Shown here: positions 1,730-40,441 of the stretch, in pieces
Position numbering within the stretch: position 1 is the stretch's first letter
Layout: the number at the start of each line of letters is the position of its first letter
Virus record (IMG/VR): IMGVR_UViG_3300026532_000002
Coordinates: 1-40,441 of that record
Length of the DNA: 40,441 nucleotides
Direction: 5' to 3' (one strand)
Origin: a virus
Made by a program: the position numbers and the translations under genes
The notes under the pieces: generated by a model
Databases searched by the model: none
What the model was told of the DNA's origin: nothing
What the model saw: only the letters and a program-made list of their open reading frames with translations

Positions 1730-1989
1730 TCACATGCCGAAGGGTAAACCTGCACCCCGCCGGACCACGGAATCCGTCGGGGCCTATTGCCCCAGAAGTG
1801 CAAGCACACGGGCCGGGGTTCATCCCGGCTGTGGGCATCGAAGCGGATATCGAGCGCATTCTTGACGACACCCTCTGGGCCGAGTGTAAAAATCGGCGCT
1901 GTCAAGAGGGCATCGAGCTGATACACGGCGTCGAGCACGCCGTTCATCAGATTGTCGCGCTCATTCAGGCACAGAGGGGCGCCCAATGA
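1726..1989 (+). CDS. Hypothetical protein
   Basis: ATG 1726 overlaps stop 1727-1729. Its stop 1987-1989 overlaps ATG 1986. Preferred over the antisense ORF 1624..1998 because of this double coupling. Confidence 0.5.
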   Translation: MITCRRVNLHPAGPRNPSGPIAPEVQAHGPGFIPAVGIEADIERILDDTLWAECKNRRCQEGIELIHGVEHAVHQIVALIQAQRGAQ

Positions 1990-3749
1990 CCCTGACACCT
2001 GCCGCTTTCATGTCCGCCGCACCGGCGCCGCTCAACGGCTCCTCGCCCTGGGCAGCGCGCTACGCGAGCGAGCTCCGCCGCGTAGTCACCGAGCACGCCG
2101 CCCGGACGCCGCGGACCCTTCAGCGCCACCTCGGCCCGTCCGAACTCGGCGTGGAATGCGATCGGCAGGTGGTAGGCAAAATGGCTGGCCAGCCGACCAC
2201 GAATCACATCGCGGACCCGTGGCCGAGCGTTGTAGGAACCGCAGTGCACGCCTGGTTGGCAGACGCGTTCACCGCGGACAACACCCGGCACGGTGTGCTG
2301 CGGTGGGTGGCGGAGCAGCGCGTCACCCCGCACCCGAATCACCCCGGTACCGCCGACCTGTACGACGCCGCCGAGCAGGCGGTGGTGGACCACAAGGTGC
2401 TCGGCGAATCGAGCCTGACCAAGGTCCAATCACTGCGGGGACCGCCGCGTAAATACGTGGTGCAGTTGTTACTCTACGGACTCGGTTACCGCAACCTCGG
2501 TTTACCCGTGCGGCGGGTCGCGCTGGCCGCGTACCCCCGCACTCAAGCTTCCCTTGACGGTCTTTACGTCTGGGATCGCGAATATTCCCCAGCGGACGAC
2601 GAATTACTACGGGAAGTGTTTCACCAAACTGATTATCGCCAGCAATGGGCCAATCGGGTCATTTCCGGTCAACTTGATATCAAACAGATCCCCCGGACAC
2701 CCAGCCACGATGAGTGCTATTTCTGTTTAGCGGGGGAAACCGAGGTTGTGACGCGCGACGGCATCCGACCGATCCGCGAACTGGCCGGCACAACACACAA
2801 CCTATTGGTTCCGTCAGCACGGCCAAACGGGGCACGTGGTCAGTTCGTCTCGGTCCCTGTACGCGTATTCGGTGTACAACGCCTATCCGCCGTTCACCTA
2901 CGGCGGTACCGGGCGACGAAGACGATCTACGCCACACCGGAACATCGGTGGATTACAGCCGACGGAGCGGTGGTGACTACGGCCGAATTGCAGACTGGTG
3001 TCCAACTCGCCTCGGTTCGGGCTGAACCCACTCGCGGGGCCCGTCCGATCAGCGCTGCCATCGCTCAGGGATTCACCTACGGCGACGGCGCACGGGGTAT
3101 CAATCGTCGGCCAGCCACACTTGCGATCTACAGACGTAGTCACAAGCGCGCGTTACTGCCTCACTTCGGCCCGATCGAGGTGCGGGAGTACGCCACACCA
3201 GACGGCGACACCGTAGACCATATCTACGGCCTGCCGCGTTTCTGGAAAGCACTACCGCCGCTCGACGAATCACGCTCGTTTCTGCTTAGTTGGCTAATCG
3301 GTTACTTTGCCGCTGATGGGTCCGTTACTGAAGCCGGACAATGTGAACTCAGTAGCGCCAACAGGGAATCGTTGCTGTTTGTGCGTGATCTCGCCGCAGC
3401 GTGTGGGATCGGTTACGGCAGTATCGCAACCAGATCGCGTTTCGGTAAAAACACTAAACCAACTGATCTGTACACAATTGGGCTGAACGCCCGCGATTTG
3501 CCTGATTGGTTCTGGATTCTGCCGCACCACAGACAACGCGTCGCTGAACGCGTAGAAAAAGCGGAAAGAATAACCCACTGGTCCGTCGTCGACATTAAAC
3601 CAACTAATCGAATTGAGGAGGTCTACTGCGCGACCGTCCCTGGTATAGGAGCGTTCGCACTCGTTGATGGACTCACCACCGGTAACTGCCCATTTTATCG
3701 GCCAGATGCGCACGACGGTGGACCGGGGTGCCCAGGAACAACCACATGA
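1986..3749 (+). CDS. Cas4/RecB-family PD-(D/E)XK exonuclease precursor, interrupted by an intein
   Basis: Nuclease motifs GTAVHAWL, ADLYD, VVDHK and QLLLYG (QxxxY). N-terminal Cys (VECDR) plus C-terminal ECYFC / CPFYR...GCPG cysteines. A 321-aa in-frame insert carries intein blocks. Confidence 0.8.
   Translation: MTLTPAAFMSAAPAPLNGSSPWAARYASELRRVVTEHAARTPRTLQRHLGPSELGVECDRQVVGKMAGQPTTNHIADPWPSVVGTAVHAWLADAFTADNTRHGVLRWVAEQRVTPHPNHPGTADLYDAAEQAVVDHKVLGESSLTKVQSLRGPPRKYVVQLLLYGLGYRNLGLPVRRVALAAYPRTQASLDGLYVWDREYSPADDELLREVFHQTDYRQQWANRVISGQLDIKQIPRTPSHDECYFCLAGETEVVTRDGIRPIRELAGTTHNLLVPSARPNGARGQFVSVPVRVFGVQRLSAVHLRRYRATKTIYATPEHRWITADGAVVTTAELQTGVQLASVRAEPTRGARPISAAIAQGFTYGDGARGINRRPATLAIYRRSHKRALLPHFGPIEVREYATPDGDTVDHIYGLPRFWKALPPLDESRSFLLSWLIGYFAADGSVTEAGQCELSSANRESLLFVRDLAAACGIGYGSIATRSRFGKNTKPTDLYTIGLNARDLPDWFWILPHHRQRVAERVEKAERITHWSVVDIKPTNRIEEVYCATVPGIGAFALVDGLTTGNCPFYRPDAHDGGPGCPGTTT
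2724..3686 (+). mobile_element. Intein (321 aa) with a double-motif LAGLIDADG homing-endonuclease domain
   Basis: Begins CLAGETEVVTRDG (block A) and has TPEHRW (block B). Two LAGLIDADG-like motifs: IAQGFTYGDGA and LIGYFAADGSV. Ends VYCATV...LVDGLTTGN followed by +1 Cys (CPFY). G+C is visibly lower in the endonuclease part. Confidence 0.85.
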
Positions 3750-3764
3750 AAGTGACTATTCATC

Positions 3765-4583
3765 GTGACATATCCACAGATGCCTCAAGCGCCACAGAGT
3801 TACCAGCAATTTCCTCAGGGTTATCCGACTACACCACCTCAGAATTACCCGCAGCAATTCCCTCAGCAATTCCCTCAGGATTACACACAGGCGCCCGCGC
3901 AGCCGCTACCTCAAGGAAACCTGTCGGACTTTTTCGGCCAGCCTTCAGTCAGTGGCGGTCCCTCGTGGTCCTTCAAAGACAAGCCGGTTGGACAGTCTTA
4001 CGCGGGAATCGTTGAGCGTGCGCTCACCAACGCTGACATTGAACCGCAGACTATCCCCGGCACCAACCGGCCAGCGACGTACCGCGACGGCCGCCAGAAG
4101 TGGGTGATGAAGGTCCCCATGTTGGTGCAAGCTGATACTGATCACCCCGACGGTAAAGCCACCTGGTATGTCAGCGGGCAATCTCGGGACGAGCTCGTGC
4201 GTGCAATGGCCGAAGCTGGCGCACCCGAAGGGGCTCCGGAGCCCGGCGCGTTTATTGGCGTCCAGCTAGTTGGGCGCAAGCCCAGCAAAACGCCGGGGTT
4301 CAGCCCCAGCAATCAGGTTCGTGTCGTCTACCGACGGCCGGAGGGTGCCGCAGCACCCACAGCTACGCCCGTCGCTGAGCAACCTGCACAGCCTGCCCCG
4401 CCGGCGCAGCAACCGTCGGCGTTCACCGAATTAGCCCAACAGCAAAGCATCGTCCCCGCACAGGTGTCACCGGAACCCGCGCAGCACCCTCCGGCCGCTC
4501 CGGCGCCTCAACCGCCAGCCGGGCTCTCCGCTGAGCAGCAGGCCCTGTTGGCCCGAATGACCGGGACGGCCCCCACGAGCTGA
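3765..4583 (+). CDS. Hypothetical protein with a Pro/Gln-rich N-terminus and Pro/Ala-rich C-terminus; possible DNA-binding role from its position
   Basis: 272-aa ORF with GTG 3765 or ATG 3780. Repeats QQFPQGYP, QQFPQQFPQDY. Sits between the exonuclease and helicase genes. No catalytic motif recognised. Confidence 0.5.
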   Translation: MTYPQMPQAPQSYQQFPQGYPTTPPQNYPQQFPQQFPQDYTQAPAQPLPQGNLSDFFGQPSVSGGPSWSFKDKPVGQSYAGIVERALTNADIEPQTIPGTNRPATYRDGRQKWVMKVPMLVQADTDHPDGKATWYVSGQSRDELVRAMAEAGAPEGAPEPGAFIGVQLVGRKPSKTPGFSPSNQVRVVYRRPEGAAAPTATPVAEQPAQPAPPAQQPSAFTELAQQQSIVPAQVSPEPAQHPPAAPAPQPPAGLSAEQQALLARMTGTAPTS

Positions 4584-4647: not shown

Positions 4648-6414
4648 GTGGAGCCCACCATCGTTGGCGAACTGACCGCGGACGGCAGCCACATCGTGCT
4701 CATCGCTGCGGGTGACGATGCCGTGGCGATCGCGGGCGTGGCGCAACAGCTGCAATTCCTTACCCCGTTGGTCCAATCCAGCACCCCGCCCGGCGCGGTG
4801 GTGCTAGCGACAAGTTGGCCAGCGGTGGCACAACTAGCGCACACCTACGGCGCGGCGTGGCGCCCACAGCCACGGTTGCACGCCTGGATTAAGCGGGAGA
4901 CGCTGCGGCGCACACAGTTACCCGCGGAACTCACCGCGCCGGTTCCCGAGGGGCTCACCCCGCGGCCCTATCAGGTGCGGGGCGCGCTGATGATCGCCTC
5001 TGTCGGGTCAGCGCTCATTACGGACGAACCCGGTACCGGTAAATCGGTCACCACGATCCTCGGGCTCAAAGAGATCGGATTGTCCGGCCCCGTTGTCGTG
5101 GTCGCCCCGGCCAGCGTGGTGGACCCGTGGGTTGAGCACTTCCGTACATGGGCACCGGAATGGCGCGCGGTCGCCTGGCGGGGCGCGCCGCAGCGGCGGT
5201 GCGCGCTTGCCGGTACCGCGGATGTTTACGTGGTCAGTTACGACACCGCCCGTATGGACGCGCAGGCCGACAGGGGTCCTCACGGTGGGCGGCGCGCGCT
5301 GCTCGACTTGTGCCCGGCCGCGGTGGTCGTGGACGAACACCATTTGATCAAGAGCCCCCACGCGGCCCGTTCCCACGCCGTGCGCCGATTGGCCAAGCAC
5401 GCCGGCACCGTCATTGCGCTCTCTGGGACGCCGATCACCCATCACCCGGCCGACCTGTGGTCCACCCTCGTCGCGCTGAATCACGACGCGTGGCCGTCCC
5501 GGGAGCGGTGGGTGCGGCGGTATTGCCTGACGGCGCTGAGTGACTACGGCGAACAGATCCTGGGGCTGAACCCTCACTACGAACCCGAGTTTCGTACCGC
5601 GCTGCTCGGCCAGCATCGCCGCGTCGCCAAGGCGGATGTGCTTGATCAGTTGCCGCCCAAGGTCTACAGCGTTCGAACGGTCGAAATGCCGGCGGCGTAT
5701 CGCAAGGCGTACGACCAGATGGAAACCGACATGCTCGCCGAACTGCCGGACGGCACCGAGCTATCGGTGATGTCGGTGTTAGCGCAACTGACCCGACTCT
5801 CACAACTGGCCTCGGCAGCGGCCGACGTTGAGGTGACGCACGAGCTCGGGGCGGACGGTGAGGAGCGGACGCACTACCACGTGACCCTCAAGGCGCCCAG
5901 CTGGAAAGTTGGCGCGCTGCTGGAGGTGCTCGACGAGCGGCCCGGTGAACCGGTGGTGGCGTTCGCGCCGTCCCGTCAGCTCATGCGACTGGCGGGCGCG
6001 CTCGCGGAAAAGGCCGGCTACCACGTCGGCTACATCGTCGGCGGGCAAACGATGGCCGAACGCACCGCCACGATCGCGGCATTCCAGGCAGGCAAACTAG
6101 ACCTGATCTGCGCGACCACGGGTGCTGGCGGGGTGGGAATCACGCTCACCGCGGCGCGCACGGTGGTGTTCCTCCAGCGTCCGTGGTCGTTGGTCGAGGC
6201 GCTCCAGGCTGAAGATCGACTTCATCGAATCGGCGCGGAAAAGCACGATTCGATCGAAGTGATCGACATTGTTGCCGCTAACACCATCGACACCAGAGTG
6301 CGGGCCGTACTCCGCGAAAAGGCCGGGCAACTGGCCGACCTCGTCCAAGACAAACGGATCGTTGCCGAGCTGCTCGGCGGAGCGTCGGTCAAGAAGCTAA
6401 GGAAGGCGTCATAA
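4648..6414 (+). CDS. SNF2/Rad54-family (SF2) helicase
   Basis: Motif I DEPGTGKS, motif II VVDEHH, motif III LSGTP, motif VI QAEDRLHRIG. RBS ggaagggg 7 nt before GTG 4648. Confidence 0.85.
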   Translation: MEPTIVGELTADGSHIVLIAAGDDAVAIAGVAQQLQFLTPLVQSSTPPGAVVLATSWPAVAQLAHTYGAAWRPQPRLHAWIKRETLRRTQLPAELTAPVPEGLTPRPYQVRGALMIASVGSALITDEPGTGKSVTTILGLKEIGLSGPVVVVAPASVVDPWVEHFRTWAPEWRAVAWRGAPQRRCALAGTADVYVVSYDTARMDAQADRGPHGGRRALLDLCPAAVVVDEHHLIKSPHAARSHAVRRLAKHAGTVIALSGTPITHHPADLWSTLVALNHDAWPSRERWVRRYCLTALSDYGEQILGLNPHYEPEFRTALLGQHRRVAKADVLDQLPPKVYSVRTVEMPAAYRKAYDQMETDMLAELPDGTELSVMSVLAQLTRLSQLASAAADVEVTHELGADGEERTHYHVTLKAPSWKVGALLEVLDERPGEPVVAFAPSRQLMRLAGALAEKAGYHVGYIVGGQTMAERTATIAAFQAGKLDLICATTGAGGVGITLTAARTVVFLQRPWSLVEALQAEDRLHRIGAEKHDSIEVIDIVAANTIDTRVRAVLREKAGQLADLVQDKRIVAELLGGASVKKLRKAS

Positions 6415-6896
6415 TGAGTAAATGCCACACGCTCGTTATCGGTGTTGATCCCGGGGGCACGACCGGAATAGGCGTCTTAAACTATATCCACCGGTGTGAC
6501 ACTCCAGAGATAGTGGACATAGCCCAGTGTAGCCCGGGAATTACTTTGCAATTAGTGGCCGCTCTGATGGCGTGGAACGTACCCACCGTACTTGCGGTGG
6601 AATCGTTCGTTGTTGGACCGCGCGCATATCGCTCAGCCACACCACAAGCAGGGCAGACGGCACGAGAAATCATTCACGCGTTGTCTATGCAAGCGGAAGA
6701 ACTATCTTATGTGCGCTTTATTCAGCGCCCCGCTGGCACAGTCAAGCCCTGGGCGACAGATAAGCGCCTGGATGCCGCCGGACTGCTCGATCGCACCAAA
6801 GGCATGCCTCACGCCCGGGACGCCTTGCGCCATGCCTTGTTCGCCGCGGTGCGGGATTGCGGCGTAACCGACCCACTGAGCCGAGAGGCGTCATGA
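6414..6896 (+). CDS. RuvC-like Holliday-junction resolvase
   Basis: RNase-H-fold start VIGVDPGGTTGIGVL, later acidic VESF, C-terminal HARDAL. ATG 6414 overlaps the helicase stop. Confidence 0.7.
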   Translation: MSKCHTLVIGVDPGGTTGIGVLNYIHRCDTPEIVDIAQCSPGITLQLVAALMAWNVPTVLAVESFVVGPRAYRSATPQAGQTAREIIHALSMQAEELSYVRFIQRPAGTVKPWATDKRLDAAGLLDRTKGMPHARDALRHALFAAVRDCGVTDPLSREAS

Positions 6897-9800
6897 CCGC
6901 TGCCGAGGCCGGCATGGGCTCTCTGTCCGAGCACCACCGGCACATGCTATGTGTGGAATCGGGACTGTCCGCGCAAACAGTAACCCAACGCGGATACCGC
7001 ACCGTGCGGGGCACTGACGGCTCAGCCGAACTCGCCACGCTGGGTTTCAATCTTGCGCAGGCGCGCACGGCTGAGCGGGGTGACGCGTTGCTGGTGCCGC
7101 TGTACGACACCACCGGCGCCGTCGTCAGCCACCAAATCCGCCCGGACGTGCCCCGGCTATCTCAGGGCAACCCGATCAAGTACGAGACACCGGCGCACGT
7201 GGGCAATCGCGTGGACGTGCCGCCGGCGGGGCGTGACGTGGTCATGGACGGCACGTCCCCGCTGTGGGTGACGGAGGGGGCTAAGACCGCCGACGCACTC
7301 GCCCAGGCCGGCGCCGGCGTGCTCATGCTGTGCGGGGTCTGGGGGTTCATGGGCCGGAGTGCGCAAGGGATCGGGACGGCGGTGGTCGCCGATCTCGCCT
7401 ACGTGCCCATGGCCGGACGCACGGTGTACCTGGCCTATGACAGCGACGTTGTCACCAAAGAGAGCGTGCAGGCCGCTGAGCGGCGGTTGGCGGAGACTCT
7501 CAGCGGCCGCGGCGCCGCGGTGTTCACCGTACGGATCCCCAGCGGGTCAGGCGGTATCAAGCAGGGCGCCGATGACTTCCTAGCCGCTGGCGGCACGCTG
7601 GACGCGCTAGTGGCCACGGCCGCTGCGCCGACGGCGACCGACCCGCTCGGCGGCAAGTCACCCCAGCGCTACGCTTACGACCTTGTCGCGGACGGGCACG
7701 AGCTCGCGGTGGACACCACCGGCGCGTTCCTGTTGCGTCCTGTGGACGCGGCTGGATTGCCAGCCGGCCCGGCACGGCGGTACTCCCGCCTGGATCTACA
7801 GGACCGCACACTGAGCCTGGCCGGCGCACGGGGAGCGGTGACCCTGCCCCAATCCGCTGTGACGCACGCGGTATCCCGCCACAACGGTGACCACATTGAC
7901 CAGCGCGTGGGCTTGCCCCCATCGCACATCACCCGCGTACACGGTGTCACCTGGCTGGACATGGGCACTGGGGTCGGGCACGACGTGGTGCGCCTGAGCG
8001 CTGATGGTTGGGGGTACGCGTCGTGGTCCGACGTACCACTGTGGCTGGTGCGTGGTGACACCACGGTGGAACTCACGCCCCCGGCGTCTATTGAACAGCG
8101 CAGTTGGGAACCGCTACGCCGTTTGCTCGCGCTGGACGATGAGTCGTTCGCGGTGATCCGGGTCTGGCTGGTGGCGCTGCTGGTCACCGACCGCGTGCCG
8201 CTGTTGTGGTGGCGGGGTGCTGCTGGTGCTGGCAAGTCCACTCGGGCCGACCTCGTTAGCGCCGTATTGGGGTTGCCAGGATTGTCTGCCGCGCCGCTGA
8301 ACATGCAAGACGCTTACAGCAAACTACAGGAGTCTCCGTGGATGCAAATAGAGAACCTCGGAGCGCTGGACCCGGCGATGTCGGACCTGTGGTGCACAGC
8401 TATCGCAGACGGTGTGGTGTCCACCCGAATCCTGCACACCTCTCGCCAGGTTCGTGTCACTGGTAGGTGGACGGGTCAGGTCACGTCTGTCCGAGACGTT
8501 CCTGGTGCGCTGGACGACCTGATGTCCCGGGCGCTCACGGTGGACGTGCCGGTAGACACCACCCGCCGGCTGGCCGCGGACCTGCACGCGGAAATGCGCG
8601 AGCACGCTCCCCTCGTGCGCGGTGCGCTGCTTGACGACGCGGTGGCGGTACTACGGCGGTTCGCCGCTGGCGACCTGCGGACCGGTAGTTACCGGTTTCC
8701 CGCACTGACCGCGATCGCGCACGCGCTCGACGTGTGCGACGGGGTAGCGGGTATCCACGCCCATGCCCTAGGGGACGCGGCCAGCGAAACCACCGCGGAA
8801 CGCTCGGAAAACGACCCATGGGTTCGGTGGCTCGCCGATGAGACACGACGGTGCGGTGGCTGCTGGACCGCAACGGCAGCGGAGATCTTCGACGCCCAAC
8901 GTGCGCATCGGCGCTCGGTGACCGTTGCCCTTGCGGACGAGGTCGACCAGTGGCCGACCAGTGCCAAGCAGGTGGGCTGGTGGCTGCCGACGCGCGAAGG
9001 GCGTCTCCGTGCGTTGGGTGTCGAGTGGCGCAAGGGACGGCGTACGGCTGAGCGTCGTCCGCACGTGCTGCGTGTGCTCGGCGGAAACTCTGTCGTTCCT
9101 CCCAAGATCGAAGAAGAAACGACAGCCACTACGTCAGAACAAAACCCCAGGTCAACTAGGGTCTCTGACAACACTGACATTTCTGTCTTTAATCTTCAAA
9201 AAAGTTATAGAGATAAGAGTGAAGTGCAACCGTTAGATACACTAACGGTTGCACTTGGAGATAAGCAGGGGGGTATATACGGTGACGCCGATTTGGCGTC
9301 AGAAACGCCGGGAACGACAGAGACCCTAGTTGACCTGGGAGTTTGCGCTGACAAACCACAAACGGGCATTGTCATCCGCCCCGAGGGGAACGTCAGTGCC
9401 CATCGGTGCTCTCGCTTGGAGCGCCGGGGCGACCCCACCCCATGTTCTCTAAACGATACACGGGAAGGTCTTGTGGCTGTCGTGCGCGCCGAGGGTGCGC
9501 TCACGGTGGACGTGGAGACCACGGGCTACCCCGTCGGTCATGCCGACTATGCCCTGCGCACGGTACAGCTGGGGGGCGCTACGTGCGCGTGGGTGTTTGA
9601 CGTGCGTGACGGGGAGGGAGCCCACGAGGTGCGCGCGTTGGTGCGTGACTTCCTCGCGGTCGTCCCCAAGCTGCACGCTCACTCGGCTACCGCCGATCTC
9701 GTGCCGCTAGCGCACGCGGGGCTGATAGACCACGAGTCCGGCTGGCAACGGATGTTCGACACCGTCATCCCCGCCAAGCTTGCCGATCCGCAGAGCACGG

Positions 9801-11221
9801 GCTCAGGCCCTGGGCTTAAGGCCCTCGCGGGCGCCGTGCTGGGGGAGCAGGCTACGGCCCCGGCGGCTGATGAGGCGCGTGCCGCGCTGTTCAAGCGCAA
9901 CAAGTGGGTGACCAACACTAAGGTCACGACAGCGGTGGAGCGCTCTGGTTGGGCGCAGGTCGATCCCGCAGATTCGGTCATGTTGCGCTACGCCGCGTCT
10001 GACGTGCTGGACACTGCGGTGCTCGCTCAGCGCTTGCCGTGGCCGGACGCTGCGCTGCTGGAGCGCGAGCGGGTTACCCAGCGGATGACTGCCCGGGTGG
10101 CGTACCGCGGGTTGCGGGTGGACGCCGACCACGTGGCCGCTAAGCGCACCGAGCACACCGACGCGCAAGCTGTGGCCGCCGAGCGCGTGCGGGCGGCTGG
10201 TGTGGCCGATCCCGGCAGCAACAAACAGGTCGGTGAGAAGTTGGCTCAGCTGGGCGCCAGCCTGCCTCGTACCGCCAGGGGTGCACCGTCAGTCGCGGAA
10301 GGTGCGATAGAGCCGCTACGGGCCGATCAGGGCGCGGTCGGCGAGCTGGTGCGCGCGGTGCTCGACTACCGTCACCACACCAAGGCTCTCTCGGCATTCT
10401 TGGAGCCCTACGCGCAGTTGTGTGCGCGCGGGGACGGCCGAGTACGCCCGACCATTTACACTCTTGCCGCGGACACCGGCAGAATGTCCTGTGTCCGTCT
10501 CAACCTCCAACAGGTCCCGCGAGAGGGTGGTTTCCGGGCGTGCATTACCGCGGATCCTGGGCATGTGCTGATCAGCGCTGACTTTTCCGGCGTGGAGATC
10601 CGGGGCGCTGCGGCGTTGTCTCAAGACGCCACGCTGATCAAGCTGATTGCAGAGGAAGACGCCGGCCGTAGTGATGGGCTGCACTGGCTCATTGCTCGTC
10701 AGGTGTTCGGTCCGGACGCTACTAAGGCGGATCGGTACACCGCGAAGCGGGTCGTGTTCGGCCGGCTCTACGGCGGAGCCATCGCCACGCTAGCCAAACA
10801 GGCTGGCACGTCCGAGTTGGTGGTGGCGTCCGCTATTGACGTTCTGGACGCGACCACGCCGCAACTCACCCAGTGGTCCCACGCTATCCGCAACGCCGTG
10901 AAGGCTGGTAGTACCCAGTTCCCCACCTATTCGGGCCGGACCATCCACCTGCCGCGGGAATACCCGCACAAGGGCCCGAACTACTGCATTCAGGGCACCT
11001 GCCGAGAGCTGCTCGTGGACGCGCTGACCCGCTGGCGTGACACCAAGTGGGGAGATTGCACGATCCTGCCAGTGCACGACGAGATCGTGGCCATGGTGCC
11101 CGAGGCGGACGCCGACGAGGCAACTGCCGAGCTCGTGGCGTGTATGCGGGGCAATTTGCATGGCGTGCCAATTATGGCGGAGGCCAGTGCGCCGTCATTC
11201 GCGTGGGCCGATTCGGTGTAG
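6893..11221 (+). CDS. Fusion protein: Toprim (DUF3854-like) primase, P-loop NTPase, 3'-5' exonuclease and family-A DNA polymerase
   Basis: Toprim VTEGAKTADAL and YLAYDSDVV. Walker A GAAGAGKST. Exo motifs LTVDVETTG, HSATADL, YAASD. Pol motif A DFSGVEIRGAA, motif B RYTAKRVVFGRLYGG, motif C PVHDEIV. One uninterrupted frame; ATG 6893 overlaps the RuvC stop (ATGA). Confidence 0.85.
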   Translation: MTAAEAGMGSLSEHHRHMLCVESGLSAQTVTQRGYRTVRGTDGSAELATLGFNLAQARTAERGDALLVPLYDTTGAVVSHQIRPDVPRLSQGNPIKYETPAHVGNRVDVPPAGRDVVMDGTSPLWVTEGAKTADALAQAGAGVLMLCGVWGFMGRSAQGIGTAVVADLAYVPMAGRTVYLAYDSDVVTKESVQAAERRLAETLSGRGAAVFTVRIPSGSGGIKQGADDFLAAGGTLDALVATAAAPTATDPLGGKSPQRYAYDLVADGHELAVDTTGAFLLRPVDAAGLPAGPARRYSRLDLQDRTLSLAGARGAVTLPQSAVTHAVSRHNGDHIDQRVGLPPSHITRVHGVTWLDMGTGVGHDVVRLSADGWGYASWSDVPLWLVRGDTTVELTPPASIEQRSWEPLRRLLALDDESFAVIRVWLVALLVTDRVPLLWWRGAAGAGKSTRADLVSAVLGLPGLSAAPLNMQDAYSKLQESPWMQIENLGALDPAMSDLWCTAIADGVVSTRILHTSRQVRVTGRWTGQVTSVRDVPGALDDLMSRALTVDVPVDTTRRLAADLHAEMREHAPLVRGALLDDAVAVLRRFAAGDLRTGSYRFPALTAIAHALDVCDGVAGIHAHALGDAASETTAERSENDPWVRWLADETRRCGGCWTATAAEIFDAQRAHRRSVTVALADEVDQWPTSAKQVGWWLPTREGRLRALGVEWRKGRRTAERRPHVLRVLGGNSVVPPKIEEETTATTSEQNPRSTRVSDNTDISVFNLQKSYRDKSEVQPLDTLTVALGDKQGGIYGDADLASETPGTTETLVDLGVCADKPQTGIVIRPEGNVSAHRCSRLERRGDPTPCSLNDTREGLVAVVRAEGALTVDVETTGYPVGHADYALRTVQLGGATCAWVFDVRDGEGAHEVRALVRDFLAVVPKLHAHSATADLVPLAHAGLIDHESGWQRMFDTVIPAKLADPQSTGSGPGLKALAGAVLGEQATAPAADEARAALFKRNKWVTNTKVTTAVERSGWAQVDPADSVMLRYAASDVLDTAVLAQRLPWPDAALLERERVTQRMTARVAYRGLRVDADHVAAKRTEHTDAQAVAAERVRAAGVADPGSNKQVGEKLAQLGASLPRTARGAPSVAEGAIEPLRADQGAVGELVRAVLDYRHHTKALSAFLEPYAQLCARGDGRVRPTIYTLAADTGRMSCVRLNLQQVPREGGFRACITADPGHVLISADFSGVEIRGAAALSQDATLIKLIAEEDAGRSDGLHWLIARQVFGPDATKADRYTAKRVVFGRLYGGAIATLAKQAGTSELVVASAIDVLDATTPQLTQWSHAIRNAVKAGSTQFPTYSGRTIHLPREYPHKGPNYCIQGTCRELLVDALTRWRDTKWGDCTILPVHDEIVAMVPEADADEATAELVACMRGNLHGVPIMAEASAPSFAWADSV
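9146..9339. other. Low-G+C structured element inside the polymerase-fusion linker (candidate intragenic origin or cis-acting RNA/DNA structure)
   Basis: 22-bp perfect inverted repeat 9146-9167 / 9318-9339. It encloses an A/T-rich tract, a 15-bp hairpin (9222-9256) flanked by direct GAGATAAG 8-mers (9210-9217, 9258-9265), and a 7-bp hairpin (9283-9301). Confidence 0.6.
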
Positions 11222-11232
11222 GAGGGATCCCA

Positions 11233-11880
11233 ATGGCTGTCTGTCTCATTTGCGAAGACCAAGATGCCATGCACCGGTACGTGTGCTATGGCTGCACCAA
11301 CCGAATGCGCCGCCAGCTGCGCGAACTGGAGACCTATGCCGCGATTCTCGCCGTGACCGTCGCGCCGTTGCACGGCGGATCAGGCCGGCGCGCACCTGGT
11401 TACGATAGTCGTAGCCCCGCTAGGGACGACGTGATCGTGATGCTCGATTGGCGAACCCGAACCGACTCCTGCGGTGACGATGACGATGACAGCCCCATCT
11501 GGTCTCTCCTCGGCACTCTCCACGGGTTATCCATCTACATCGCCGGTCAGCTTGGTCACACCGAACCGATGCGCATCACGATGACCGTCGTGACGGCGTA
11601 TCTCTTGGCGGTGGTGGACCGCTGCGCGTTAGAGAAGTGGGTTGTGGACGTTGCCGCCGACATCCACGACTTACACACCCAAGCTCGCGCATTGGCGCAC
11701 GATTGCCCACCTCGCCCACTTGGTGCGTGCCTCGGGGTGGGTTGTGGTGGAGCTGTTTATCCCGCCATTTTGCGAGATCAGCGTGGCGAGCACGAGGGAG
11801 CACGGTGCAGCAGGTGTTTGCGTGCGTACGACGGTCTCGATCTTGCTAGGCTCGGGGCGCAGGAGGTGACGGCACGGTGA
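11233..11880 (+). CDS. Hypothetical Cys-rich (zinc-ribbon-like) protein
   Basis: RBS ggaggg 6 nt before ATG 11233. N-terminal CLICEDQ...CYGC and C-terminal CLGVGCGG...CSRC cysteine pairs. Confidence 0.55.
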   Translation: MAVCLICEDQDAMHRYVCYGCTNRMRRQLRELETYAAILAVTVAPLHGGSGRRAPGYDSRSPARDDVIVMLDWRTRTDSCGDDDDDSPIWSLLGTLHGLSIYIAGQLGHTEPMRITMTVVTAYLLAVVDRCALEKWVVDVAADIHDLHTQARALAHDCPPRPLGACLGVGCGGAVYPAILRDQRGEHEGARCSRCLRAYDGLDLARLGAQEVTAR

Positions 11881-12071
11881 AGCGTGTACCTGCTTGGGTA
11901 GTACTGGAGATCCTGCGGCAGGAAGCCGATAAGACGGGGGACAACCGATATCGTGTCACCGGTGGTGCCCTTCGGAATTGGGTGTGGCGTGGGCACGTCA
12001 CCCGCGGCTCAGGTGGGTACGACCTCACGGAGATACTTGCCTATCTTCAGAGCCGCAGTGTGGCGGCTTGA
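11877..12071 (+). CDS. Small helix-turn-helix DNA-binding protein
   Basis: GTG 11877 overlaps the preceding TGA (GTGA). 64 aa with winged-HTH-like LRNWVWRGHV. Last gene of the early operon. Confidence 0.5.
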   Translation: MKRVPAWVVLEILRQEADKTGDNRYRVTGGALRNWVWRGHVTRGSGGYDLTEILAYLQSRSVAA

Positions 12072-12124
12072 CACAGATCAAGTCCTGTGTGACGCTCGGG
12101 GAGAGCGGAGCCCTGTCCGCACCG

Positions 12125-12162
12125 AAGCCCCCGTCGAGAATTCTCTCCCCCTCCGGGGGCTT
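12125..12162 (+). terminator. Stem-loop after the early operon (terminator candidate)
   Basis: aagcccccg / 20-nt loop containing the palindrome gagaattctc / cgggggctt, followed by tg. Confidence 0.35.
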
Positions 12163-12204
12163 TGTCGCGCTCAAAGACCGTCCGGCCAGTGGTGGAGGTG
12201 TCTG

Positions 12205-12360
12205 GTGAACTCTGCCCTACTAACCGCGCTCCTCGTCCCTGTCAGCGGGCTCTTGCTCGCTCTCGCTTTCCTTTTCGGCGGCCGGGTGGCGCACCTCTTG
12301 GCAGTTCTGTCCGCTGGACTGTTCGCTGCGGCCGTCGTTCTTATTCTCGCTCACGGCTGA
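12205..12360 (+). CDS. Small membrane protein (51 aa)
   Basis: RBS ggagg, then GTG 12205. Almost entirely hydrophobic: LLTALLVPVSGLLLALAFLF...LFAAAVVLILA. Confidence 0.45.
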   Translation: MNSALLTALLVPVSGLLLALAFLFGGRVAHLLAVLSAGLFAAAVVLILAHG

Positions 12361-12371
12361 TTGCGCGAGCC

Positions 12372-12710
12372 ATGCCGAAACGGCCCTGCCTCGGCTGCAA
12401 GCGGCTGATCCCCACTGCCGACGGCAATCGCTGTCAGACTTGCCGCTCGGTACGGGACCGGCAGCGCGACGCGCGCCGTGGTGGGACCACACAGCGTGGC
12501 TATGGCCGGGTCTATCAGCGCGAGCGGGAGCGTGTACTACCCCGTGCTACGCACTGCTGCGTGTGCGGTGTCAGCTTTGCCGAGCTCGGTGTGCAGCCCA
12601 CCGCTGAGCATCTCGTGTCCCGTCGGCACGGTGGCCGAGCGGTGGGCAACCTGGGTGCGGCGTGCGCACGGTGCAATTATGGTTGGGCACGACATGGCAA
12701 CAGTAAGTAG
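12372..12710 (+). CDS. HNH endonuclease (terminase-associated type)
   Basis: CLGCKR...CQTC zinc knuckle, then EHLVSRRHGG...NLGAACARCN (H-N-H core). Located immediately upstream of the terminase genes. Confidence 0.8.
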   Translation: MPKRPCLGCKRLIPTADGNRCQTCRSVRDRQRDARRGGTTQRGYGRVYQRERERVLPRATHCCVCGVSFAELGVQPTAEHLVSRRHGGRAVGNLGAACARCNYGWARHGNSK

Positions 12711-12933
12711 TATATGCAGGTCAGAATCTTATTGATGCTCCACATAGGAGCATTCCACAGAGGACTGATTTCAAGCCTCTGACCTGCGGTTATGCCACCG
12801 GGGTCAAGATTCATTCGACCTGGGCTTTTCTGACCCGCCCCACACCCCATCTTTTCACGTGGTACCACTGGCGGAAATTGTCCGAAATAGTCGTTTTTTC
12901 GTGAAGAATTGTCCGATTTCGGGGGTGATCGTG
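12711..12933. promoter_or_regulatory. Non-coding, lower-G+C, repeat-rich region between HNH and TerS: probable cos/pac and late-promoter region
   Basis: 10-bp inverted repeat 12716-12725 / 12778-12787 encloses an 8-bp hairpin (12734-12754). Direct repeats AATTGTCCGA at 12876-12885 and 12907-12916. No convincing ORF. Confidence 0.5.
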
Positions 12934-13455
12934 ATGCCCCGGAGCAAAAAACCGCCCGGACATGCGGTAGACAAACGCAACGGGCAGCGCGCCACCTTGA
13001 GTGTGATCAGTGGCGAGAAACCGAAGCGCCCACCGGCGCCGGGATCGTTGCGCGCGGATGCTCGCAAGCTGTGGGTGGCGTATTGGGATGACGTACTTGC
13101 CGGCATCGTTCAGCCCGCTGAGATCTACCTCGTGCGGCGCTGGGTGGCGAACGTCAACCGGTATCTGACGTTGATGGCCACCGCGGACGCGGAACCGATT
13201 GTGGAGGGCTCGCAGGGGCAGACCCGGGCGCACCCGGCTTACACGCTGGCACTGAAGCTTGAGGACTCGATTCGTGCCGACGAGGCCCAGCTGGGCTACG
13301 GCCCGAAGAACCGGGCGGCGCTCGGTATCGCGGTGGTGGAACAGAAGCGCAGCCTGGCTGATCTGAACACGAGGTACGGAGGCGCAGATGGCCGAGTCAT
13401 CACCGCCACCGACGACCACGCGGACGAACGGGACCCGCGCACGCAAACCGGCTGA
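12934..13455 (+). CDS. Terminase small subunit (P27-like)
   Basis: MPRSKKPPGHA... basic N-terminus followed by LRADARKLWVAYW. Position directly before the large subunit. Confidence 0.7.
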   Translation: MPRSKKPPGHAVDKRNGQRATLSVISGEKPKRPPAPGSLRADARKLWVAYWDDVLAGIVQPAEIYLVRRWVANVNRYLTLMATADAEPIVEGSQGQTRAHPAYTLALKLEDSIRADEAQLGYGPKNRAALGIAVVEQKRSLADLNTRYGGADGRVITATDDHADERDPRTQTG

Positions 13456-40228: not shown

Positions 40229-40441
40229 AGATCACCGTTGAGATCCCCGACGACGTCGCCGAACGGGTCAAGACCGCCCGGGCTGCGTTGCACCAGGCTG
40301 GCGCCCAGCCAAACAACGCAAAAGCCTCCATGCTCAACCGCGCCGAGAAGATTCGGGAGCTGGCCGTCGCATACGGCGAGGCCGTTCGCCACGTCCCGGC
40401 GCACAGCGTGACCTGGTACGCGCTGCTTGATGCGGAATGGG
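40225..40441 (+). CDS. 5' part of the junction-spanning hypothetical protein (continues at 128..195 of the circle)
   Basis: GTGA overlap with 39686..40228. Open to the window end and in frame with nt 1..195. Confidence 0.6.
   Translation, partial: MKITVEIPDDVAERVKTARAALHQAGAQPNNAKASMLNRAEKIRELAVAYGEAVRHVPAHSVTWYALLDAEW
40315..40441. repeat. Terminal direct repeat, copy 2 (identical to 1..127)
   Basis: Exact identity with the window start. Confidence 0.95.

Follow-up and report, generated by a model that had tools for sequence, protein, structure and literature searches.

Positions ~9090-9400 of the virus record IMGVR_UViG_3300026532_000002 probably constitute a phage replication origin of the kind at which self-loading Rep/Cch initiator helicases act, a reading that draws on analogy with known systems and to which we assign a probability of roughly 0.6. 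The record was analysed as one stretch of 40,441 nt (hereafter the window), and the candidate origin lies inside an open reading frame (ORF), where it is translated as the linker between a primase-helicase and a DNA polymerase. While the layout of Rep/Cch origins is itself known, the absorption of such an origin into a reading frame as a translated linker would be new. Being absorbed into the frame, the element must satisfy two codes at once, the absence of stop codons and a set of DNA motifs. To our knowledge, and as far as we searched the literature, the origins from which high-G+C actinobacteriophages replicate have been mapped only poorly.

The segment stands out from the rest of the window by composition and by symmetry. 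Its G+C content is 0.39-0.47, down from ~0.69, and the stretch at 9170-9229, with 30% G+C, is the minimum among all 60-bp stretches of the 40-kb window. A perfect 22-bp inverted repeat (Table 1) forms part of a longer imperfect one of 53 nt with 77% complementarity (9133-9185 / 9300-9352); the 22-mer of its arm occurs at two sites only in the window (0 of 100 shuffles). Between the arms lie a perfect 15-bp hairpin and a 7-bp hairpin, and the words GAGATAAG and CGTCAGAA (9132 and 9297) each occur as a pair. The inverted repeat, the hairpins, the 8-mer repeats and the drop in G+C had all been listed in a preliminary description made from the letters of the window, and every one of them was recovered in place and exceeds chance expectation. 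Folded as single-stranded DNA, 9085-9400 reaches a z-score of -10.1; folded as RNA, it reaches -9.6 for the + strand and -10.6 for the - strand. Superimposed on the palindrome are about 12 units of 9 bp resembling CTGWCGTTY, oriented +++ to the left of the A/T-rich centre and --- to its right, and 4 of the 7 exact CTGWCGTTY copies in the 40-kb window fall inside the element. The preliminary description had proposed iterons next to an A/T-rich element, and both are present; however, the real iterons are these units, two opposed triplets plus outliers, and not the GAGATAAG or CGTCAGAA repeats. The whole element is bracketed by a conserved pair of inverted boxes, AAACCCCAGGTCA and TGACCTGGG. No DnaA boxes were found near the segment.

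The host ORF extends from 6857 to 11221 on the + strand, for a polypeptide of 1454 residues; it stays open through the segment, and its likely start is the ATG at 6893. It is a fusion gene for a DUF3854/Toprim primase, a P-loop helicase and a family-A polymerase. The DUF3854 domain has a Pfam match, and its model resembles the RNA-polymerase/Toprim domain of DnaG (Foldseek, E ~1e-6). Residues ~748-875, between the C-terminal domain of the helicase and the exonuclease/polymerase, are the linker encoded by the segment, and the element begins ~40 nt past the last conserved residues of that C-terminal domain. The frame remained open in 17 of 5000 dinucleotide shuffles of 9101-9478, which bears out the earlier remark that it is open beyond chance, and the other five frames of 9086-9400 contain 2-11 stops. 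Where the conserved polymerase part begins, a Shine-Dalgarno-like GGGAAGG is followed after 4 nt by an in-frame GTG at 9473 (9462-9475), on sequence grounds a possible internal start of a polymerase-only product.

Five relatives from public assemblies (L001, L002, L003, L004 and L031), with ~60% protein identity, form a clade with the window. No close phage was found in the GenBank collections and no close relative by protein search of IMG/VR, and protein searches of metagenome contigs and GTDB genomes returned distant DUF3854 proteins only. In all six clade members the element lies within the open frame. The frame is unbroken in L001, L002 and L003. In L004, both halves stand in one frame with a single TAA between them (8996-8998), which, as far as the sequence tells, points to a nonsense mutation or a read-through site and not to an ancestral gene boundary. 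In L031 (GCA_040961635.1) the linker continues in frame as far as the polymerase; a frameshift in the helicase part (~3790-4096), which is an assembly error or the mark of a pseudogene, has divided the gene call in two.

Across this clade the protein alignment is excellent on both flanks and collapses in the linker. The dip in G+C occupies the same place in all five relatives, and the lowest G+C of the locus is found at the linker also in L002, L004 and L031. At third codon positions, G+C falls from 0.78-0.95 outside to 0.39-0.60 within the linker, and in all five loci tested (window, L001-L004) the coding frame alone is free of stops; hence, the low G+C is not a by-product of amino-acid composition. 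Large inverted repeats of differing sequence stand at the corresponding place in the relatives, and a common plan can be read from left to right: one to three outlying units, the box (A)AACC(C/G)CAGGTCA, a tandem triplet of 9-bp units, ~85-115 bp of A/T-rich centre, a second tandem triplet pointing the other way, TGACC(T/A)GG as the inverted box, and further outlying units. The order of orientations, (-)(+++) centre (---)(+)(-), is kept in the clade together with the 9-bp spacing, and the repeat words are lineage-specific (CTGWCGTT, CGGACGTT, CTGCCGTT or CTGTAG; Table 1). L001 possesses 12 units, six per side, and L003 has 10, while the central 15-bp hairpin is specific to the window. The preliminary description had supposed that the linker of a replication protein holds an origin-like element on which selection acts as DNA; the conserved architecture supports such an element, and from it we infer the function as an origin.

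That the nucleotides rather than the peptide are constrained follows from the left box, because it is read in two different frames: as QNPRS in the window, L002, L004 and L031, and, shifted by one, as ETPGQ or ETAGH in L001 and L003. The frame of the central TATAGAGA word also varies among the relatives. Between the window and L004 the inner arms show several differences, four of which are compensated on both arms so that complementarity is kept. For the relatives, the preliminary description had considered a conserved peptide with decayed repeats as the outcome that would speak against its claim; what we found is an amino-acid sequence that is not kept and an inverted-repeat architecture that is, with changes on both arms. 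When the 53-pair register of the window was laid on the five-sequence alignment, 62.5% of the cells were paired, against 31-46% with the partner slid by 1-3 columns, and 15 pairs had changed on both sides, against 4-9 when slid. The observed pairing was reached by 8 of 500 shuffles and the observed covariation by 20 of 500. The 53-pair structure was itself derived from one of the aligned sequences, and the covariation lends moderate support to the symmetric register. Judged from these alignments, the segment is constrained at the DNA level while its peptide drifts.

Strongly negative RNA fold z-scores and compensated changes in the arms would also be expected of a structured RNA, be it, as had been considered before, an mRNA hairpin by which translation is paused or regulated between the two halves, or else a decoy or antisense RNA. 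However, in no locus does one strand fold better than the other, and of the 60 non-Watson-Crick arm positions (9133-9352 in the window, and L001-L004) 5 are G·T and 20 are A·C on the sense strand. The bottom strand would thus form the better G·T-tolerant hairpin, and the A·C excess, which would favour an antisense transcript, may arise because T is avoided on the sense strand (stop codons), or because the bottom strand is used as a hairpin. Rfam gave no match for the whole window at the gathering score, and none for 8900-13000 at E <= 1. As the strands fold equally, G·U is scarce and Rfam is without a match, a sense-strand RNA is unlikely, and a known structured RNA family was rejected for lack of a covariance-model match, a fold without strand specificity and the few G·U pairs. 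No sigma-70-type promoter was found on either strand of 8800-9800, and the single terminator-like match in that interval is no more than chance would give. Furthermore, L002 barely folds yet retains the repeats and the G+C dip, and repeated identical 9-mers and words specific to a lineage are what one expects of binding sites rather than of helices. Altogether, we consider a structured RNA very unlikely.

The segment might also have no function, being either a low-complexity linker prone to slippage and template switching or what is left, after decay, of a mobile element with inverted repeats that had inserted in the common ancestor. Slippage and template switching can indeed yield tandem 9-bp units and palindromes, and linkers tolerate nearly any sequence. 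Against this stand the position and unit order common to six lineages whose synonymous sites are otherwise saturated with G+C, the boxes conserved across frames, and the parallel arrangements with unrelated repeat words in distant relatives described below. The arm 22-mer has no exact match in IMG/VR, blastn against 50,697 phage records gave no DNA match, and no further copies exist in the window, which disfavours the domesticated inverted-repeat insertion suggested earlier. A miniature inverted-repeat transposable element or similar mobile element was likewise rejected, given that the arm is unique in the window and the site is the same in all relatives. An absence of function is, in our view, hardly probable.

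The half of the protein encoded upstream is, on profile comparison, related to a DUF927 family of MCM-like AAA+ proteins, the Rep and Cch initiator helicases of Staphylococcus aureus pathogenicity islands (SaPIs) and of the staphylococcal cassette chromosome mec (SCCmec), respectively. Searched against the PDB, the primase-helicase family profile matched a pathogenicity island protein (8tch, 2.3e-17) and SCCmec Cch (5dgk, 2.4e-15). Pfam DUF927 (PF06048) was matched by 11 of the 15 family members and the Cch helix-turn-helix (HTH) domain by one. Alignment of the window clade with distant members by hhalign covered 115 columns from the Walker A motif onward (92.9% probability, E 3.6e-7); the comparison of A3 with A2 was uninformative, as A2 contains the query, and was replaced by one with A4. 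Foldseek found PriRep1 (7pds, E 6e-4) for the window protein, and a PDB search with the five-member clade profile alone gave no match. The C-terminal domain of the primase-helicase half (residues 562-749) was modelled as helices with a terminal beta-hairpin, with a predicted local distance difference test (pLDDT) of 88-95 over the last ~90 residues. Its Foldseek list consists mostly of winged-helix proteins (Orc1/Cdc6, PadR, MarR; best E 0.46), and from the model a winged helix is possible.

In the SaPI pri-rep-ori replicon, origins lie directly downstream of rep (PMC9371898, citing Ubeda et al. 2007). They comprise 6-12 iterons and an A/T-rich centre, with at least two iterons per side and the two sides opposed. 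In the Rep C-terminal domain it is the winged helix that recognizes the iterons, and Rep is believed to load as two hexamers; in SaPI5, primase and Rep are fused (PMC9371898). SCCmec Cch2 follows a similar logic, its operon being followed by a putative origin (PMC7581432), and the Rep initiators of cyanobacterial plasmids include DUF3854-helicase proteins (PMC10079941). By analogy, the position of our element, directly after the helicase-coding sequence, is the usual place of Rep-type origins.

From the anatomy, the conservation at the nucleotide level and the helicase homology we infer binding, melting and initiation in four steps. The C-terminal domain of the primase-helicase half, encoded just upstream, would bind the 9-bp iterons. 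Two helicase rings would then assemble in opposite orientation, one per iteron set, upon which the A/T-rich centre would melt, possibly aided by extrusion of the palindrome. Finally, the Toprim domain would prime and the covalently fused family-A polymerase would extend. It is a matter of speculation that translation beside the site could favour action in cis, and equally that the count of six units on each side in L001 would correspond to the six DNA-binding domains of a hexamer.

Parallel arrangements exist in distant DUF3854-helicase loci, with only ~35-42% identity in the Toprim domain. Unrelated short words (6-8-mers) are clustered and opposed within or shortly past the 3' ends of these genes, often 9 or 18 bp apart (Table 1), and an AACC(C/G)CAGG box recurs near the clusters. 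This box is not diagnostic on its own, because the same word, AAACCGCAGGTCA, encodes KPQV at the N-terminus of two large serine recombinase genes (L020 3590, L027 6086). Used as a DNA pattern in IMG/VR, the left and right boxes gave 4 matches, about the chance expectation; L027 and L029 were among them, and L020 came from the genome search. In L029 (IMG/VR 3300018053_000002), GTGGGACG repeats, an A/T-richer core and the AAACCGCAGGTCA box extend across the 3' end of a helicase gene (7395-7655). That gene (5608-7479) encodes AAA_25 and a C-terminal HTH, so by its sequence the locus looks like a similar origin logic beside a different helicase family. The P0027 locus, which has a separate polymerase, was tried for comparison and set aside as uninformative because of its different neighbourhood.

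Three wider statements can be made tentatively, to which we give somewhat less than even odds. One polypeptide would combine primase, initiator helicase and polymerase and carry its own origin in a translated linker, a dual-coding replicon cassette of one gene; origins in or abutting the 3' end would be general for the DUF3854-helicase initiators of actinobacterial phages and mobile elements; and AAACC(C/G)CAGGTCA would be a new origin signature, e.g., a priming start or a helicase entry site.

Repeats and symmetry are binding-site-like and silent on the identity of the binder, so the array could serve a purpose other than initiation, such as autoregulation, the nucleation of Lsr2-like or other A/T-binding proteins, packaging or partition. 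Lsr2-like proteins prefer A/T-rich DNA in actinobacteria, and relatives encode such DNA-binding proteins (L001 21829-22179, L002 15208-15618). Moreover, a related inverted repeat adjoins the HNH and terminase genes of the window. It consists of GCAGGTCAGA, 55 nt and TCTGACCTGC at 12716-12789, with an inner hairpin ATGCTCC/GGAGCAT, and occupies the intergenic, low-G+C DNA that separates the HNH gene (12162-12710) from the terminase gene; the core CAGGTCA/TGACCTG is common to this repeat and to the boxes of the linker element. No tRNA, transfer-messenger RNA or Rfam family was found at 12716-12789; this stretch may contain cos or a terminator, or may be bound by the same factor as the linker element. 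On the other side, a site after a Rep/Cch-type helicase with opposed iterons and an A/T-rich centre is the defining layout of the origins of this family (PMC9371898), and this position recurs in the distant relatives. Promoter-like sites are lacking, and packaging sites are normally found at terminase genes. A binding array without origin function therefore appears unlikely.

Several observations weigh against assigning the origin to the linker element. The clade sample is small, with six members that include a close pair, L001 and L003. Since the repeat consensus was drawn up only after inspection, its Poisson P-values make it look more significant than it is, whereas the exact-8-mer counts are independent of the post hoc motif definition. 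In L002 the G+C dip and the repeats persist with little dyad symmetry (fold z = -2.2 / -1.0). A turn in GC skew was not seen at the segment, and 12716-12789, the chief competing location, could be the origin or a cos site instead. The window protein alone falls below the Pfam DUF927 model, so that the link is by profile comparison only, and the model of the C-terminal domain has no significant Foldseek match (best E as given above). SaPI origins are non-coding, unlike the element in the six open frames described here. At the corresponding place in two phages with DUF3854 primases, phiC31 (gp9a/gp11) and Microbacterium phage Zeta1847 (gp37-40), there is neither a G+C dip nor an iteron cluster.

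Table 1. Coordinates of the candidate origin and its host gene in the window, repeat words of the clade relatives, and word clusters at distant DUF3854-helicase loci.
Locus	Feature	Position	Strand	Remarks
Window	Primase-helicase half	6893-9085	+	DnaG-like Toprim/DUF3854; Rep/Cch (DUF927)-related P-loop ATPase; helical C-terminal domain
Window	Outer left repeat unit CTGTCGTTC	9090-9098	+	
Window	Outer left repeat unit CTGTCGTTT	9117-9125	-	
Window	Outer left repeat unit CTGACGTAG	9129-9137	-	
Window	Left conserved box AAAACCCCAGGTCA	9141-9154		present in 6/6 clade members; other frame in L001, L003
Window	Left arm, perfect 22-bp inverted repeat	9146-9167		
Window	Three tandem 9-bp units: CTGACAACA, CTGACATTT, CTGTCTTTA	9165-9191	+	homologous triplets in L001-L004, L031
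Window	A/T-rich centre, candidate DNA-unwinding element	9170-9229		contains TATAGAGA, in another frame in relatives
Window	Central 15-bp hairpin	9222-9256 (9222-9236 / 9242-9256)		two abutting iteron-like CTAACGGTT units; flanked by GAGATAAG (9210, 9258)
Window	7-bp hairpin TGACGCC/GGCGTCA	9283-9301		overlaps first inverted 9-bp unit
Window	Three inverted tandem 9-bp units	9294-9320	-	+ strand reads TGGCGTCAG, AAACGCCGG, GAACGACAG
Window	Right arm, perfect 22-bp inverted repeat	9318-9339		
Window	Right conserved box TGACCTGGGAGTTT	9331-9344		left box inverted
Window	Outer right unit CTGACAAAC	9348-9356	+	
Window	Outer right unit CTGACGTTC	9388-9396	-	
Window	Further outlying unit CTGTCGTGC	9477-9485	+	
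Window	Exonuclease (3'-5') and family-A DNA polymerase half	9473-11221	+	
L031 (6.3 kb)	Repeat word CTGACGTT			9/9 copies inside element
L001 (24 kb)	Repeat word CGGACGTT			9/9 copies inside element
L003 (9 kb)	Repeat word CGGACGTT			8/11 copies inside element
L002	Repeat word CTGCCGTT			3/3 copies inside element
L004	Repeat word CTGTAG/C (CTGTAS)			6/7 copies inside element
L010/L011	Word TCCGCTCC	last 240 nt of ORF (L010 4379-4527)		7/7 copies
L005	Word CACACCCC	last 210 nt (3631-3723)		5/7 copies, around AAAACCGCAGGTCAGAGG
L009	Word CCGTCCCA	last 150 nt (6456-6525)		3/3 copies
L013	Word TGTCCC	13-100 nt past stop (4325-4411)		2 direct + 2 inverted, 9-bp spacing

The first and the last 127 bp of the window are the same (1-127 = 40315-40441), hence the assembly is circularly closed and complete, with a genome of 40,314 bp. 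This genome is temperate and siphovirus-like, with genes for an SNF2 helicase, a terminase, a capsid protein and a tyrosine integrase. The ORF at 1986-3749 (+) encodes 587 residues with an exonuclease family (phrog_1674) at residues 19-249 and LAGLIDADG_3 at residues 432-482; its product may, from this domain order, be a fused homing endonuclease or contain an intein.

These results provide a precise candidate origin for a whole clade of high-G+C actinobacteriophages and a simple rule for searching relatives, namely to look at the 3' end of a DUF3854-helicase gene for an A/T-rich core together with 9-mers that are opposed and specific to the lineage. The element is also a case of overlapping codes, in which third-position G+C collapses and the peptide drifts while the motifs and the open frame are kept, and is as such useful for studying how a cis-acting site joins a gene. 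If the reading as an origin holds, the primase-helicase-origin-polymerase unit would be a compact replicon module for actinobacterial vectors, and the model of the self-loading Rep/Cch helicase would extend from staphylococcal islands to phages of another phylum.

Among known systems, the core origins of simian virus 40 (SV40) large T antigen and papillomavirus E1 resemble the window in their inverted initiator-helicase sites beside an A/T-rich element, and they load two hexamers. They have been mentioned alongside Cch2 (PMC7581432). Unlike the window, these are eukaryotic viruses with superfamily 3 (SF3) helicases, an N-terminal origin-binding domain and a non-coding origin.

The lambda origin in gene O (PMC3985674, PMC3017604), which the preliminary description had taken as its model, shares with our candidate the location inside the gene of the initiator itself, in the part for an interdomain linker, as well as iterons, an A/T-rich tract and the overlap of two codes in one sequence. 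In contrast to the window, the iterons of lambda ori are four direct copies of 19 bp, its A/T-rich region lies beside them on one side, and lambda O is neither a helicase nor a primase and is not homologous. An origin of the lambda type was therefore rejected for the window, where the units are of 9 bp and opposed around the A/T-rich centre and the protein is without an O-like domain; the pri-rep-ori arrangement of SaPI and SCCmec, with the origin directly after a Rep/Cch-type helicase, is nearer.

As in SCCmec with Cch or Cch2, a self-loading DUF927-type helicase with a C-terminal DNA-binding domain (here predicted) is followed immediately by repeats and is encoded beside a polymerase or primase. 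The SCCmec repeats differ in being direct and intergenic, inverted repeats are dispensable for binding there (PMC7581432), and the SCCmec polymerase is a separate protein of another family.

The window corresponds to the SaPI replicon in the Rep-related helicase recognized by profile, in the origin candidate directly after the helicase-coding sequence, and in the short, opposed iterons either side of an A/T-rich centre, with a lineage-specific iteron word; primase and helicase are fused, as they are in SaPI PriRep5. Its units of 9 bp compare with 5-6 bp in SaPI, extra conserved boxes flank them, the primase is of the DnaG/Toprim (DUF3854) kind, and the DNA belongs to a temperate phage of the high-G+C actinobacterial type. 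Unlike its SaPI counterparts, finally, the candidate origin of the window is itself coding sequence, read in frame to give the linker that joins a fused family-A polymerase.

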